From: Verrucomicrobiota bacterium
Lineage (GTDB): Bacteria > Verrucomicrobiota > Verrucomicrobiia > Opitutales > Seribacteraceae
Assembly (NCBI GenBank): GCA_027622665.1
Contig: JAQBYT010000018.1
Location: forward strand, 1 to 64,000
Reading direction: 5' to 3'
DNA length: 64,000 nucleotides
Positions within the stretch are counted from its first letter, which is position 1. Every line of letters starts with the position of its first letter. The notes beneath the pieces are model-generated. The model saw only the letters and a program-made list of their open reading frames with translations, made no database searches and was not told the origin of the DNA. This document shows positions 8,600-14,212 of the stretch, one piece after another. The position numbers were made by a program, and so were the translations under genes.

Positions 8600-8895
8600 G
8601 TGATTACTCCGTGCCTATTGGCCGAATTGTCCTTCGGTCACTGTCCCTTGTGGTATTGTGCTTTGGGGTAGGGCTTTGGTGGTATCACGGATTACAACCG
8701 GGCCTTTGGAAGACGAGCGTGGAAAACCGAGTTGAAATTCCCATCATCGAAGGCATGCCCGAGCTTGGCACTCAGGAACAAATCATATGGGAAGACCGTT
8801 TCGTCGCGGGAATAGAAACTCCCATTCTTTCCTTGGTTCTTGCCCTTTTTGTCTGGAGCCTTTCTTTTTTATCTTTTCGACAATCAAATCCGTAA
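8596..8895 (+). CDS. Small membrane protein with two TM segments
   Basis: ATGA overlap with the xerC stop. Two hydrophobic segments flank a short loop. Confidence 0.65.
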   Translation: MSDYSVPIGRIVLRSLSLVVLCFGVGLWWYHGLQPGLWKTSVENRVEIPIIEGMPELGTQEQIIWEDRFVAGIETPILSLVLALFVWSLSFLSFRQSNP

Positions 8896-8917
8896 ATTCC
8901 AACAACGATTCCAAACA

Positions 8918-9529
8918 ATGACTCAGAAATGTTTTCCCTTTCTCGCAGCTTTAATCGCTTCCACCTGCCTGTCGGCCAAGGTTATCACTTTCGACTTCAA
9001 GGATCCGAAAAACGTAAACAACGTCATTTTTCAGATGGATGCCCCGCTTGAGTCGATCAACGGGTCCGGTCACGGTGTCGCGGGCATCGTCAAGTTCGAC
9101 CCCAGTTCCCCTGAGTCCACAACCGGCTCCATTACTCTAGTAGCCACCAGTCTCCATGTCGGAAATCCCGTACTCAAGGAGCATATTCACGGTGAGGAGT
9201 GGATGGACGTTAAGAAGTATCCTGAAATCAAATTTGTCTTGTCTAAACTCGAGAATGTGCGGAAAGACGGTCTCCACATTATCGCTGTGGCCAAGGGAAA
9301 GATGACTATCAGGAAAGTGACCAAGGAAATTACGGCCCCCATCAAGCTGACCTTCCTCAAAGGAATGTTAGAGAAGCGTAATCGCGTGCCAGGCGATCTT
9401 CTCGTGATCCGTTCAAAGTTCGTCGTGAAGCGCGATGATTTTGGAATACGACCCGGAGAAAAGCTCGAAAAAGTATCCAATGAGATTGAGATTTCTCTAA
9501 ATGTTGCGGGAGCCGCTCCCGCCAAGTAA
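8918..9529 (+). CDS. YceI family (lipid/polyisoprenoid-binding) periplasmic protein
   Basis: Signal peptide from the ATG at 8918. Motifs EHIHGEEWMDVKKYPEIKF, GKMTIRKVTK and VKRDDFGI. Confidence 0.85.
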   Translation: MTQKCFPFLAALIASTCLSAKVITFDFKDPKNVNNVIFQMDAPLESINGSGHGVAGIVKFDPSSPESTTGSITLVATSLHVGNPVLKEHIHGEEWMDVKKYPEIKFVLSKLENVRKDGLHIIAVAKGKMTIRKVTKEITAPIKLTFLKGMLEKRNRVPGDLLVIRSKFVVKRDDFGIRPGEKLEKVSNEIEISLNVAGAAPAK

Positions 9530-9537
9530 CCTAGGGG

Positions 9538-10986
9538 TTATTTGTGACCCAGCGCTTTCTTTATGGCGGCCTTGATTTCAGGGACTTCGCCATAGGGGTC
9601 TTCATACTTTCTACAATAGCTTGCCAGTGCTTTTGTTAGACTTAGCACGACTGACGAGTACTTTGGTATTTCGTAACAGTTATCCATTTCATCGGGATCC
9701 TCAGCCAAGTCGAAGAGCCAGGGTTCGTCCATAGCGGAAAAAACAAGCTTATGGTTGTCGGCTACGGCGCAAAGCCATGGTTTACCTGCACTGGTGGAAC
9801 GAATGAAGGCGATGTCGTTCCATTCCTTCCCCTCTCCGCGAAAGAGGGCGGAGGCGTCTCTCCCCTGTTCCTCTCCGACTGTGTTGACCTCCATCAGAGA
9901 GAGTGTCGTGGGGAGGAAGTCGACACAGCTTAGGGCCTCGTTCACGATAGTTCCCGCAGGCACCTGGCCGGGGCAGTGGAGCAAGAAGGGGATTCGAGCC
10001 GAGCCCTCGTAGGGTACGCCTTTGTTTATGCGCCCATGCTCTCCGCAGAGGTCGCCGTGGTCGGCAGTGAATACGATGAGCGTACGATCGATAATCTTGT
10101 TTTTTCTCAGGGATTCCAAGATTCGCCCCACGTTGTCGTCCAAGCATTTAACCATGCCGTAGTATTTCGGCATGATCGAGCGTACGGTGTCGGCGGTAAG
10201 TCGGGGACCTTGCCTGCCGCCCCATTTCGGAGTTTGAGCCAAGGTCTTTGTCAGCGATCGAGGTATGGGTACCTTGGCGTCGGCATACATGACGTCATAG
10301 GGAGCTCGCACCGTGTTGGGGCCATGCGGGTCGGGATAGTCCACCATATAGCAGAAAGGCTTGCTTCGATTGAGGTTCACGAAGTCGATTACTTTGTCCG
10401 TAAGCCAGTCGGTGGAGAAACTTTTCTCGTCGGCTCCCGCAACGTCGTAATTGGGTTTTCCGTTACGGCGAGCAGCGACTCTTGGACCGTCATCAGTATC
10501 CTCGAACTTTTTCCAGTGCCCACGGTTGAACATGAAGCGATTGTCGTCCCAGCCGAATTTCCGTTTTGGTTCCCACTGCGGTTTGCCGTTTCCATCGAGA
10601 TGCCACTTTCCTGCATAACCGGTGGCATATCCTTTCCGCCGTAGAATTTCGGCGAAGGTCACGATCTTGTCATCGAGTCGAATGTTGTTGTTGGTTACCG
10701 GAGTGTGCTGCGGATAGCGACCGCTCATTAGTGCCCCGCGGGAAGGAGAGCAGACGGGGGTGGTTGCATAAAAGCTGGTGCAAATTGCACCGCTGTTTCC
10801 GATCCAGTCTATGTTTGGCGTCCCAACGATTTTCCCGCCATAGCAGCCAAGCGTCTTGAAATGATGCTCGTCGGTCTGAATGACGAGCAGGTTCAGGGAA
10901 TCATTCTGGTTCGTCCCAAAGGTCGGCAGAGAAAGATTCATGAGAATGAAAAGTGGCAATGCTAATGAGGCAAACGGGGATTTCAT
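9538..10986 (-). CDS. Formylglycine-dependent (S1) sulfatase
   Basis: NLLVIQTDE, CSPSR (CxPxR), GKWHL, FTADHG and LFDLAEDPDE. A signal peptide starts at the ATG at 10986 (MKSPF...). Confidence 0.92.
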   Translation of the reverse strand: MKSPFASLALPLFILMNLSLPTFGTNQNDSLNLLVIQTDEHHFKTLGCYGGKIVGTPNIDWIGNSGAICTSFYATTPVCSPSRGALMSGRYPQHTPVTNNNIRLDDKIVTFAEILRRKGYATGYAGKWHLDGNGKPQWEPKRKFGWDDNRFMFNRGHWKKFEDTDDGPRVAARRNGKPNYDVAGADEKSFSTDWLTDKVIDFVNLNRSKPFCYMVDYPDPHGPNTVRAPYDVMYADAKVPIPRSLTKTLAQTPKWGGRQGPRLTADTVRSIMPKYYGMVKCLDDNVGRILESLRKNKIIDRTLIVFTADHGDLCGEHGRINKGVPYEGSARIPFLLHCPGQVPAGTIVNEALSCVDFLPTTLSLMEVNTVGEEQGRDASALFRGEGKEWNDIAFIRSTSAGKPWLCAVADNHKLVFSAMDEPWLFDLAEDPDEMDNCYEIPKYSSVVLSLTKALASYCRKYEDPYGEVPEIKAAIKKALGHK

Positions 10987-11106
10987 GACAAAGGTTTTCT
11001 GCTCGTTATCGAAGCCACCTTTATTCGTAGTGGTAATACGATTACCATTTATCGAATAAGTGCACGGGTCAATTCGCGGATTAAGCTGAAGAGGCAAAAT
11101 ACCAAC

Positions 11107-11146
11107 AAAAGAAAAGGGCCCGGAGATTACTCTCCGAACCCTCTTC
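11107..11146 (-). terminator. Intrinsic terminator ending the putative ncRNA
   Basis: Minus strand reads GAAGAGGGTTCGGAGA-GTAA-TCTCCGGGCCCTTTTC followed by TTTT: a long stem, a GNRA loop and a U-rich tail. Confidence 0.8.
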
Positions 11147-11149
11147 AAA

Positions 11150-11740
11150 AAGGTGGGACGGCGTTCGCCACACGCTCGTTCCCGGATACCGGCATTTGGT
11201 ACTCATCCAAGGGTGAAAGCTGCCGGTTTCCCGACGTCATTCAAGGAAACAAGGCCTTATTGCGTCCATAATTAAAGAGACGTCGTCAAGTTTCCTCTAC
11301 AAATTAGAGTGAGGCTTCTTGGCCAATCGCTCGTGTATCTTACGACGGGCTTACGATTCACTCGGAACAGCATCGTTGCATAATGACGCCATCCCTCTTT
11401 TCGCAGTGTCTGCCCCACAGCGAGCTGTGGCTGTTCGCCCCGCTCTACGTGTCTCGCTCTTCTAGCCTACGGTCATTTTAAGCAACTCGTCCAATGCCTT
11501 GCGGCACGATGAGAAATCGTAGCGTTACCTTTCGCGCGATGCGAATTTTTACGCTTCTACTTGAGGTGACTTGGTCTCCAAAACCCCGAAGGATTCGATC
11601 AATTTGACGCCCTTGCCGTCTTCGGTCATCTCAAACCTATCTGGACTGTCGTGGGAACGACCTGACTCTTTCGGTGACCGCCTGCGAAAACCAGTCGAGA
11701 CCCGATCATGTTTTCGCTTTCATTCTTTCAAAGAACCACC
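11150..11740 (-). ncRNA. Candidate large structured ncRNA (~590 nt; MISL/ROOL/GOLLD-class candidate, family unconfirmed)
   Basis: No credible ORF. Hairpins capped by GCAA, GAAA and UUCG loops on the minus strand, long-range complementary segments, a boxA-like 5' end and a terminator at the 3' end. Confidence 0.65.
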
Positions 11741-11749
11741 ATCAATGTA
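11726..11749 (-). promoter_or_regulatory. Putative -10 box (TACATT) and boxA-like antitermination element (GTTCTTTGAAA)
   Basis: Minus strand TACATT at 11749-11744 and GTTCTTTGAAA at 11736-11726, resembling the rRNA-leader boxA. The upstream region is AT-rich and no clear -35 was found. Confidence 0.4.
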
Positions 11750-11899
11750 TGGGCACATATTTCAATGTTGAAATACATTTCACAAATTATTTATAATCAT
11801 AAAGTTGAGAATAGTTAGAGTAATCTTCTCCATCCCCAAAAGTTGTTATTTCCATGAAATTCTCTTGCTGTCGAGAATCATCGAAGATTCCATGAACAT

Positions 11900-12562
11900 A
11901 TGAAAATGAATACAGCTCACCTTCTTCGCCGCAACTTCTTGAGAGACTCGGTTCTCGCCGCCGGTTTGCTTACTGTTCCCGGTGCCTTCGCCGAGCGACT
12001 TACACTTACTCCGCAGCAAACCCCAGGACCTTTTTACCCCAACAAGTTACCTCTGGATACCGATAACGACTTGCTTGTCCTTAATGATTCCTTGACTCCT
12101 GCAGTTGGTCAAATCACACATCTGTCCGGTCGCGTACTAGACATTAAGGGAAACCCTCTCCGGAATGCCGTTGTCGAAATTTGGCAAGTCGATGGTAATG
12201 GCATATACATGCATCCCCGTGGCGGGAACCGTAGCAAGCTTGACGCTCATTTTCAAGGATACGGTCGATTTCTAACCGGTTCGACCGGTGAATATTATTT
12301 TCGTACGATCAAGCCCGAACCCTATCCTGGACGAGCTCCTCACATTCATGTCGCAGTGAAAACGAGAGGACATAAGAAATTCACTACTCAATGCTACGTC
12401 AAAGGTGATCCGAGAAACGCCAAGGACTTTATCTTTAAAAGCCTTCGCGATGCGAAGGTGAAGGCTTCGGTGGAAGTTGACCTCAAGAACATTGCCGGAT
12501 CCAAGATCGACGAAGTTGCTGGTCGCTTCGACATTGTTCTCGGTTACACTCCCGAGGGGTAA
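11900..12562 (+). CDS. Intradiol ring-cleavage dioxygenase-like protein (protocatechuate 3,4-dioxygenase family) with Tat signal
   Basis: Twin-arginine motif LRRNFL, plus GPFYP, VEIWQVDGNGIY, YFRTIKP and YPGRAPHIH (Tyr/His iron ligands). Confidence 0.85.
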   Translation: MKMNTAHLLRRNFLRDSVLAAGLLTVPGAFAERLTLTPQQTPGPFYPNKLPLDTDNDLLVLNDSLTPAVGQITHLSGRVLDIKGNPLRNAVVEIWQVDGNGIYMHPRGGNRSKLDAHFQGYGRFLTGSTGEYYFRTIKPEPYPGRAPHIHVAVKTRGHKKFTTQCYVKGDPRNAKDFIFKSLRDAKVKASVEVDLKNIAGSKIDEVAGRFDIVLGYTPEG

Positions 12563-12815
12563 CTCGGACAGAGTCGGAACTCTCCATTTCCTTTGGAAAA
12601 AGACCGTATACCGTAGACCATCTGACTGTGCTGAGGGCGGCCAAATCTTACCCGAAATCACTTTCGGTTATTGGAGTAATCTGCAAGGTCTGCTGGGATG
12701 TTCGGTGAATCGGGGAAGTCTGCTGTGGAGATCAGCAAACTTGCACATGGAATAATGAAGAGTGAGGCAAGCCTAGCGTAGAGTTTAGTTTCATTCCAGC
12801 TTGGTCCAAGCAACT

Positions 12816-14153
12816 TCACTTCTTCTTCGTATTGTCCTTTTTTCTCTTTGGCTCACCCGGTAACTTGGTGCTAGTTATGGTGCGGATTCCCTTGTAACCG
12901 GAAAGCGCCTTGGCCAATTTTCGGTAGGCGATGGAGTCGCTTTCTTTGAGCGCATGTTGGGACAAAGGATGTTTTTCCAATTGGTCTTTCGAGAGATCGT
13001 AGAACTTCCCGTCACCATAGAGCTTGTAGCGCTGGTCGCGGGTGAATTCCTGTCCTTTGGGTCCACCGTTACGAGCGTACCATAAGTATATCCAATCCCG
13101 CTGTTCGTAGCTGGAACCTGTGAGGAGAGGGTAAATGCTACGACCATCGATCTTCAGGTTCGGCGGTATTTCATATCCTGCTGTATCGCACAGGGTAGGG
13201 AGGATATCGGAGAAATCTATGATTTCCTGCCTGACTTGGCCGGACTTTATCGTGCCCGGCCAGTTAGCGATGAAGGGAACGCGGTTGCCGGCGTCCGGCA
13301 TCGAACCCTTGCCGCCCTTGACGATCGTTCCATCTTTCATTTTGGAGGTAATGCCTGTGTAGGTGCCATTGTCACAGGTGAAAATAACGAGAGTGTTTTC
13401 CCGTATTCCGAGATCATCGATCTTGGTGACTAGCTTCTTTACGATTTTATCCACATAGGTCACCATGTCCTGAAAGTGAGGTTTGTTCCATTTGTTCTTT
13501 GGCCATTCCTTGGTTTCCTTGGGGTCCCAATCCTTGCTGTCGGGTGTCGGCTGAAAGGGCCAGTGGGGAAGGATCATGGGGTAATAGGCGAGGAACGGGC
13601 CTTCCTTATTCCGTTCCATGAAGTCACAAAGATAATCGCTAACGAGATCGGGACCATACTCTCCTTTATCGTAATTAAATTCTTTTCCATTTGTTTCCAG
13701 TCCGGGGTTCGGATAACGGCTCGGGCGGCGAGTTAGTTGCCAAAGGGAATATTCGTCGAATCCAAACTTGTTCGGTCCCTCGAAACCGCCTTCCAATTGC
13801 CATTTTCCAGCGATGCATGTCTTGTAACCAGCCTTCTTTACGAGGTTGCCGAAGGTGGTGGCTCGTGGATCGAGAAGAGCGAATCTGACATAGTTGCGGG
13901 CATTCGATATGCCGGTCATGATTTTTACGCGACTTGGTGTGCAAATGGGCTGAGAGTGGGCGTGTTCGAATCGCATGCCCCCTTGGGCGAGATTATCGAG
14001 GAAAGGCGTATTGTAGTCTGCTCCACCATTGGCTCCGAGACATTCGTAGCCCATATCGTCGGCCATAATGAGAACGATGTTCGGTTGTTTCTTGGCAGAA
14101 CCGAAGCAGGGCATGAGTAAAATAAATACGAGCAGTACTGTTTTGAGCTTCAT
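12816..14153 (-). CDS. Formylglycine-dependent (S1) sulfatase
   Basis: PNIVLIMADDMG, CTPSR, AGKWQL, FTCDNG and RVPFIANWPG. A signal peptide starts at the ATG at 14153. Confidence 0.92.
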   Translation of the reverse strand: MKLKTVLLVFILLMPCFGSAKKQPNIVLIMADDMGYECLGANGGADYNTPFLDNLAQGGMRFEHAHSQPICTPSRVKIMTGISNARNYVRFALLDPRATTFGNLVKKAGYKTCIAGKWQLEGGFEGPNKFGFDEYSLWQLTRRPSRYPNPGLETNGKEFNYDKGEYGPDLVSDYLCDFMERNKEGPFLAYYPMILPHWPFQPTPDSKDWDPKETKEWPKNKWNKPHFQDMVTYVDKIVKKLVTKIDDLGIRENTLVIFTCDNGTYTGITSKMKDGTIVKGGKGSMPDAGNRVPFIANWPGTIKSGQVRQEIIDFSDILPTLCDTAGYEIPPNLKIDGRSIYPLLTGSSYEQRDWIYLWYARNGGPKGQEFTRDQRYKLYGDGKFYDLSKDQLEKHPLSQHALKESDSIAYRKLAKALSGYKGIRTITSTKLPGEPKRKKDNTKKK

Positions 14154-14166
14154 ATTTATTCGTGAT

Positions 14167-14198
14167 CTCGGGAATCCTCCCGAGGTGCAGAATGCACC
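14167..14198. other. Two adjacent short inverted repeats between the giant gene and the sulfatase
   Basis: CTCGGGA-ATCC-TCCCGAG (14167-14184) and GGTGCA-GAA-TGCACC (14184-14198), with no U-tract. Confidence 0.5.
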
Positions 14199-14212
14199 CA
14201 TGCGGCTGTGGT

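Follow-up and report, generated by a model that had tools for sequence, protein, structure and literature searches.

What occupies the 913-nt gap between a sulfatase gene and a dioxygenase-family gene in the genome of a marine member of the Opitutales (assembly GCA_027622665.1, contig JAQBYT010000018.1)? The gap holds the stretch studied here, positions 11107-11749, which we read on the minus strand; all positions are those of the window, that is, the whole 64,000-nt stretch of DNA that was analysed. No open reading frame (ORF) longer than 66 amino acids overlaps 11107-11749 in the ORF list of the window. An earlier note, made from the letters alone, had proposed a standalone stable RNA with a boxA-like leader and its own terminator, either similar to MISL, one of the large bacterial non-coding RNAs, or the representative of a new class. 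Our answer is that the stretch is probably a relic: an orthologue of the known MISL RNA family that is in decay.

At gathering scores, Rfam gives zero matches in the whole window. With reporting by E-value over 10900-12000, positions 11160-11792 of the minus strand match MISL RNA (RF03079) across model positions 1-751 with 114.5 bits (E 1.1e-32), which is below the family's gathering score of 274.6 bits; the posterior probability of the alignment is high from about model position 392 onward. The other Rfam matches in 10900-12000 are short and sub-threshold, come from other families' models and lie on the terminator hairpin at about 11105-11162. We know of no function for MISL (Rfam type Gene; sRNA). 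The Rfam scan that the earlier note had suggested as a check came out on both sides: MISL homology was borne out in E-value mode, and the gathering score was not reached. As to ancestry the RNA is indeed MISL-like, with a whole-model match and synteny with the MISL of sister species, and a new RNA class is unsupported. The homologous part is the following:

11160-11716, minus strand: MISL-homologous body, eroded, 557 nt, model positions about 186-751 (RF03079, 114.5 bits, E 1.1e-32)

Judged by sequence and gene order, the locus is orthologous to the MISL genes of sister species. The G003 locus carries a full-length MISL (238.5 bits) and shares both the upstream dioxygenase-family gene and the downstream sulfatase gene; the G008 locus scores 303.1 bits despite a contig that ends inside the RNA, and shares the downstream gene at ~90% identity; the G007 locus shares the upstream flank. 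The copy is 87.6% identical to its G008 orthologue (69 differences in 556), and its best named match (87.8% over 559 nt) is from the Puniceicoccaceae, its named close relatives being Puniceicoccaceae/Opitutales. Its own genome contains a single MISL match. When 41 related genomes were scanned with the Rfam MISL model, 14 had matches, 9 of them over the cut-off, and this copy scored lowest of the 14; the same model gave zero matches in 14 control genomes. MISL was found in 7 of 24 other genomes of the same family and, with the Rfam model, in 9 of the 151 genomes of an even sample of the phylum. A scan of named genomes for the 3'-terminal motif yielded 119 loci whose titles are nearly all Verrucomicrobiota, mostly Opitutales, which fits the earlier note's statement that MISL was reported from Verrucomicrobia. 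In three congeners the contigs end inside or right beside MISL (G008:C7, locus L009; G004:C493, locus L032; G006:C512, locus L031), and strain-level structural variation that breaks assemblies may be the cause.

All sequence features listed by the earlier note are present, within 1-2 nt of where it had placed them, and several are family helices. Those that match the MISL consensus are GCGAAAAC/GUUUUCGC (11717-11710 and 11691-11684, its 8-bp helix), CC-UUCG-GG (11592-11585, its C-UUCG-G), UGCC-GCAA-GGCA (11506-11495) and CCACAG/CUGUGG (11430-11415). Others can be drawn in this copy and are not features of the family. GUCGG-GAAA-CCGGC (11235-11222) is there, but other members of the family leave GCGUCGGGG unpaired, and their CCGGC has its partner downstream; the helix 11623-11630/11673-11680 (CGGUCA/UGACCG) is not kept by relatives; the 8-bp complement UCGUUCCC/GGGAACGA (11660-11653/11183-11176), once a candidate pseudoknot or switch, is perfect only in this copy because of an own-lineage A-to-C change at 11655; and the closure of the two ends by GGUGG/CCACC is kept by neither the leader nor the trailer of G003.

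The most conspicuous departure of the copy from the family is the loss of its 5' part, at a sharply defined point:

11716/11717: deletion junction; homology to full-length relatives begins exactly at 11716

Homology to all 20 other sequences starts at 11716, where the hairpin of model position ~186 begins; relatives carry GAGUUAG and a 5' domain of 185-230 nt in front of this hairpin. Missing from the copy are ~240 nt that are present in G003, G008 and the metagenome contig L184, namely the remaining leader and model positions ~1-185, including the GGAUAAUCCCGGG hairpin and the helices that follow it; a further ~130 nt upstream are missing in this lineage relative to its relatives. A search of the rest of the copy's own genome, which is 93.5% complete, did not recover the 5' domain (best E 0.13). 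Seventy other MISL loci have ≥900 nt of upstream sequence. The domain is present in 69 of these, detected by nhmmer in 64 and by the Rfam model in another 5; since five of the six loci at which nhmmer had missed it proved complete with the Rfam model (~940-1010 nt), absence by nhmmer alone is not trusted. The single 5'-less exception covers model positions 389-750 only and is a second copy beside a full-model copy in the same genome: one Candidatus Moanabacter sp. record holds two MISL matches 140 kb apart (L186 and L187), one to the whole model with 234.8 bits and one to positions 389-750 with 230.7 bits, the latter with an intact core and without the H1 hairpin and 5' domain.

The junction is not an assembly error, because the same junction is present in L185, an independent metagenome contig from a 97% identical strain, because an RNA-library contig of run X15 (11584-11921) spans it, and because public DNA runs from several studies contain at least 90% of the sampled words of 10900-12000. 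L185 is ~97% identical to the window from 11435 to ~12030 and only ~67% identical thereafter (33% divergence versus ~3%); this drop, inside the dioxygenase-family gene, marks either a recombination boundary or a chimeric contig. As the divergence between the copy and L185 rises from ~3% to ~33% beyond 12030, the dioxygenase gene was dropped as a neutral yardstick for comparing the two.

The remaining body has also changed in its sequence (the alignment-based counts given here depend on MAFFT alignments). In a three-way comparison over 553 sites, 59 substitutions fall on the copy's own branch, 24 on that of G003 and 5 on that of G008; in the adjacent tail and spacer the corresponding numbers are 12, 14 and 5 in 174 sites. 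A three-way comparison of the sulfatase gene was discarded as invalid beyond ~10617, where the homology of G003 ends. Relative to G008, the remnant differs by 12.4% and the neighbouring spacer by 13.2%; for the sulfatase gene the figure is 19.1% at third codon positions and 1.4% at second positions. When sites are classed by conservation in the columns of 18 other MISLs, own-branch changes hit 10 of 89 sites conserved at ≥90% (11.2%), 19 of 198 at 60-90% (9.6%) and 30 of 266 at <60% (11.3%): conserved sites are not spared in the copy. It deviates at 6 of 60 columns that are invariant in the 20 others, the most of the 21 sequences (G008 deviates at 0 of 54), and at columns conserved at ≥90% it has 15 deviations, a number exceeded by three deeper-branching sequences (18, 28 and 17). 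The substitutions run from G/C to A/T in 37 cases and in the reverse direction in 16. The own-lineage changes include five AG-to-GA swaps of neighbouring bases (11707/6, 11668/7, 11491/0, 11459/8 and 11393/2); adjacent substituted pairs number 13 in all, about twice a rough expectation, which is an odd mutational pattern.

Base pairing gives the same picture at the level of structure. The structure was inferred without the copy or G003, and its 129 supported pairs were compared with G008. In the copy 98 of these are unchanged, 12 are kept with one side changed, 1 is compensatory and 18 are broken; in G003 the counts are 111, 9, 0 and 9, respectively. Paired and unpaired sites of the copy change equally, at 31/257 (12.1%) and 38/299 (12.7%). 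Two elements of the family core are affected in particular:

11445-11470, minus strand: mutated core strand; GAGAG-UAAGAGGC-AGACCCGUA in the family, GUAGGCUAGAAGAGCGAGACACGUA here, rewritten over 11470-11452
11263-11282, minus strand: hairpin with a mutated loop; CUGYYAUGA in the family, CUUUAAUUAU here

The long-range partner of the core strand, GCCUCACUC (11315-11307), is intact. The strand itself deviates at columns conserved at ≥90% (11462, 11460-11458 and 11450), and the core pairs 11458/11313, 11463/11310 and 11465/11309 are broken. As for the loop, its family form CUGYYAU (window 11268-11277) pairs with a downstream AURRC (11236-11240) in a pseudoknot-type interaction (columns 680-684/729-733 of alignment A1): 96.2% of cells are paired versus 87.6% in shuffles, a value that 0 of 500 shuffles reach, only 20-56% are paired when the two strands are slid against each other, and two of the pairs covary as CG/UA/UG. 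The copy is the only one of the 21 sequences that breaks pairs 680/733 and 682/731, two of the five loop pairs.

We scored the retained region with a sequence profile built from 18 MISLs, leaving out the three close relatives: the copy obtains 137.3 bits, G008 263.1 and G003 202.9, and for the 3' core the scores are 119.7, 196.8 and 160.1 bits. The copy's 3' core score is the lowest of 76 loci, the 75 others having a minimum of 128.6 and a median of 221.8. Comparison of folding energy with shuffles, another check suggested in the earlier note, is weakly positive for the 643 nt with the terminator (against 20 shuffles per strand, z is -2.57 for the minus and -3.19 for the plus strand) and negative for the 557-nt body (z -1.24), which 7 of 60 shuffles equal; the homologous body of G008 has z -5.26 and that of G003 -2.24. 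Since both strands beat their shuffles, folding energy was rejected as a guide to the strand. The surviving 557 nt seem to be free of constraint, and from these data the copy has probably lost its function. That it is a standalone stable RNA is doubtful: it has no 5' domain and a sub-threshold score, it has lost most of the folding signal, and it evolves as if unconstrained.

Two further relatives bear on the course of the decay. L185 shares both the truncation and the rewritten core strand, keeps the invariant C at 11450 where the copy has A, has G at 11536 where the copy has a pair-breaking C, and has its own change at 11438; decay of the truncated lineage is ongoing. In G005 only about the last 110 nt of MISL are left at the same locus, together with a weakened terminator; because the left breakpoint differs, this loss is, on its sequence, an event independent of the one studied here.

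The signals around the RNA have fared unequally. On the minus strand, from upstream to downstream, they are:

11772-11744, minus strand: eroded promoter-like site, predicted from the consensus and from alignment to relatives; -35 TTCAAC at 11772-11767, 17-nt spacer, -10 TACATT at 11749-11744
11722-11736, minus strand: boxA-like word GTTCTTTGAAAGAAT of the leader, intact, conserved across MISL loci
11160-11183, minus strand: 3'-terminal motif GGGAACGAGCGTGTGGCGAACGCC, 24 nt, intact, matching the pattern with which named genomes were scanned, and with posterior probability "*" throughout the alignment
11101-11146, minus strand: intrinsic terminator, a 16-bp stem (11146-11111) followed by a T-run

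Positions 11790-11717 align to the promoter and leader of G003, G004, G007 and L184. The counterpart of the promoter-like site upstream of the MISL leader reads TTGACA-17-TAAATT in G003, with CATATT in G007 and TAACTT in L184, and the change of the -35 element to TTCAAC suggests a weakened promoter. The scan that reported the terminator did not list the minus-strand site 11744-11772. On the plus strand, a near-consensus sigma-70-type site at 11768-11797 (TTGAAA, 18 nt, TATAAT; 11/12) faces the dioxygenase-family gene and overlaps the eroded MISL promoter region. Tandem TTATTCACA-type words, which resemble DnaA boxes, stand 60-250 nt upstream of the MISL promoter in congeners (G004 at L032, G003 at L012, G005 at L034) and in L184; in the window they are degenerate at ~11800-11830 (TTACTCTAA and CTATTCTCA), and ~130 nt of the region are missing. 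At the other end, the earlier note was right about the gene's own terminator, whose region (11107-11159) has 2 differences in 53 nt relative to G008.

RNA-library data consist of contigs of four runs, which carry no level, ends or strand. In X15, X18 and X19 both flanking genes have cover; in the fourth run, X17, the single contig (11754-11922) extends no further than the start of the dioxygenase gene. The remnant is covered at 11083-11233 and 11584-11921, in X15 only, and 11234-11583 is without cover. Runs X12-X14 contain 0.66 of the sampled words.

The boxA-like word deserves separate treatment. Taken by itself, GTTCTTTGAAAG at 11736-11725 is unremarkable, being one of 29 matches in the genome at ≤1 mismatch. 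What stands out is its setting. In a survey of 82 MISL loci whose 5' end is located and for which 160 nt of upstream sequence are available, the boxA 12-mer (≤2 mismatches, sense strand) occurs within these 160 nt at 79 of the 82 genes, 9 times exactly, at a median position of -59, compared with 1 of 81 downstream 160-nt stretches and 0.4 of 82 shuffles. The consensus of the region in MISL leaders is GTTCYTTGANAGAAC, with GTTC/GAAC arms. The copy's own genome lacks an assembled 16S gene, and the word was compared with the rRNA operons of the order instead. Of 24 16S leaders, 23 carry it with ≤2 mismatches (8 of them exactly), mostly at -110 to -150; it also stands in each of 23 spacers between 16S and 23S and is absent from 24 stretches taken within 16S. 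G035 has an identical 12-mer ahead of 23S and in its MISL leader. The comparison thus supports the boxA-like label of the earlier note.

In E. coli, boxA is the site of Nus-factor (NusB-S10) antitermination (PMC3177189, PMC4807359, PMC10250234). By analogy, the MISL boxA might recruit NusB-S10 and make RNA polymerase resistant to termination, a proposal for and against which we see the balance as roughly level. The word may alternatively form a small hairpin or be a protein/DNA operator, given its GTTC/GAAC arms and a predicted start site only a few nt away. Our literature search, which did not extend to the supplement of PMC5737381, found no paper on boxA in MISL leaders, and MISL has 0 occurrences in the main text of PMC5737381.

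These observations suggest the following history. In intact relatives the unit comprises a predicted sigma-70-type promoter, an rRNA-type boxA where the transcript begins, a short hairpin in the leader, a MISL of 750-1000 nt and an intrinsic terminator. In the lineage of the copy a single deletion of ~240 nt took away the whole 5' domain together with the leader hairpin and put boxA directly next to the helix at model position 186, and a second deletion of ~130 nt took upstream sequence. The -35 box mutated, and the surviving 557 nt are now drifting, with pairs breaking, invariant loops mutating and G+C content falling. Of this, the homology, the synteny, the deletions, the pattern of substitutions and the lost folding signal are shown; that function is lost, that the promoter is weaker and that boxA serves Nus-factor antitermination is inferred. 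If the weakened promoter still fires, it would give a ~630-nt RNA that ends at the terminator and no longer folds as MISL.

Several observations weigh against a dead gene. The boxA word and the terminator are intact, and so is the 24-nt 3' end, all of which would fit continued transcription. At 69/556 the remnant has diverged less from G008 than the adjacent gene has at its third codon positions (82/429; p 0.004), so constraint was lost part-way along the branch or some of it remains. Except at family-conserved columns, it is two relatives that give the 59 own-branch changes their polarity. Full-length G003 is itself mildly eroded (9/129 pairs broken, 238.5 bits), and so the pattern may in part be a genus-wide relaxation and not the death of this copy alone. 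Finally, the truncated allele persists in two strains 3% apart without further large deletions.

The alternative that survives best builds on such observations: a still-functional, naturally shortened MISL in which the 3' two-thirds suffices and the changed motifs are lineage-specific adaptations. Besides the intact boxA, 3'-terminal motif and terminator and the lower divergence than at third codon positions, it can draw on an allele common to two strains 3% apart, with at least 90% of the sampled words present in DNA runs of several studies, and on the Moanabacter copy that covers only model positions 389-750 with its core intact (230.7 bits). However, the latter coexists with a full-model copy and so is no proof that a 5'-less MISL suffices alone. 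Adaptation also sits badly with conserved columns that are not spared, with 1 compensatory pair against 18 broken ones, with a covarying loop pairing in which this copy alone has two of five pairs broken, with the loss of the folding signal, with the lowest core score of 76 loci and with a -35 element mutated relative to three relatives. We consider a shortened functional MISL unlikely; and that a boxA-led, terminator-capped RNA of ~630 nt without a 5' domain is still made and still does MISL's job seems to us improbable.

The remnant might instead have been put to new use before the sulfatase gene, as a long leader, a transcriptional insulator or a decoy. It has the same orientation as that gene (start 10986), and the terminator between them is well conserved. 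This same strong terminator, however, separates the remnant from the sulfatase unit, G003 and G008 have the same arrangement with a full-length gene, so that nothing was newly created, and the body is without sign of constraint; we regard such re-use as very improbable. Least of all do we credit a new large non-coding RNA class unrelated to MISL, or a truncation made by faulty assembly: nothing in the window reaches an Rfam gathering score and three congeners' contigs end in or beside MISL, but the full-model RF03079 alignment (E 1.1e-32), the 87.6% identity to a bona fide orthologue and the recurrence of the junction in L185 and in the RNA-library contig 11584-11921 leave next to no room for either.

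Read as a probable MISL relic, the stretch does not matter as a new RNA class, MISL being already catalogued; its value is comparative. At one syntenic locus the genus offers a series from intact (G008) through mildly eroded (G003) and truncated (the copy) to nearly deleted (G005). This loss series shows that MISL is dispensable in some marine Opitutales, and it can be used for phylogenetic profiling, in a search for protein genes that are lost together with MISL. If, on the other hand, the short form works, it would define a minimal functional core of MISL, and the series would be one of remodelling, not loss. The boxA result is independent of the fate of this copy and suggests, by analogy, that MISL is transcribed in an rRNA-like manner by antitermination-modified polymerase, as would suit an RNA that is long, abundant and folded during transcription; it also provides a concrete starting point for experiments. 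More generally, sub-threshold Rfam matches can be pseudogenes of non-coding RNAs.

The protein-coding neighbourhood of the RNA locus is as follows:

11900-12562, plus strand: dioxygenase-family gene, the upstream flank of the RNA locus
9538-10986, minus strand, start at 10986: sulfatase gene, the downstream flank, in the same orientation as the RNA
12816-14201, minus strand: second sulfatase gene
8840-9529, plus strand: YceI-like gene

The gene content of 8840-14201 is typical of a polysaccharide degrader and is unrelated to the RNA.

How does the locus compare with known systems? MISL falls into a class of large, ornate RNAs of unknown function that also includes ROOL, GOLLD, OLE, HEARO and raiA, and the copy resembles these in such general respects; it differs in that their models give zero matches at gathering scores in the window or at E up to 10 in 10900-12000. 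Compared with the boxA leader of rRNA operons (NusB-NusE/S10, NusA, NusG), the MISL word is extended to GTTCYTTGANAGAAC and lies a few nt from the predicted start, and boxB or boxC elements, which were not searched for, were not seen; the two share the word GTTCTTTGAAAG, which in MISL too lies between a promoter-like site and a long untranslated folded RNA. From typical MISL RNA the copy is set apart by its score (114.5 versus the gathering score of 274.6), by the lack of model positions 1-185, by a body that folds like its shuffles, and by mutation of the GAGAG-UAAGAGGC strand and the CUGYYAUGA loop. Since it lies below the gathering score and has no 5' domain, we file it as a degenerate member of MISL; it is not a variant class, as homology, orthology, leader and taxon all place it within the family, with which it shares most helices of model positions 186-751, the 3'-terminal motif, the boxA leader, the terminator, an Opitutales host and an orthologous position in the genome.

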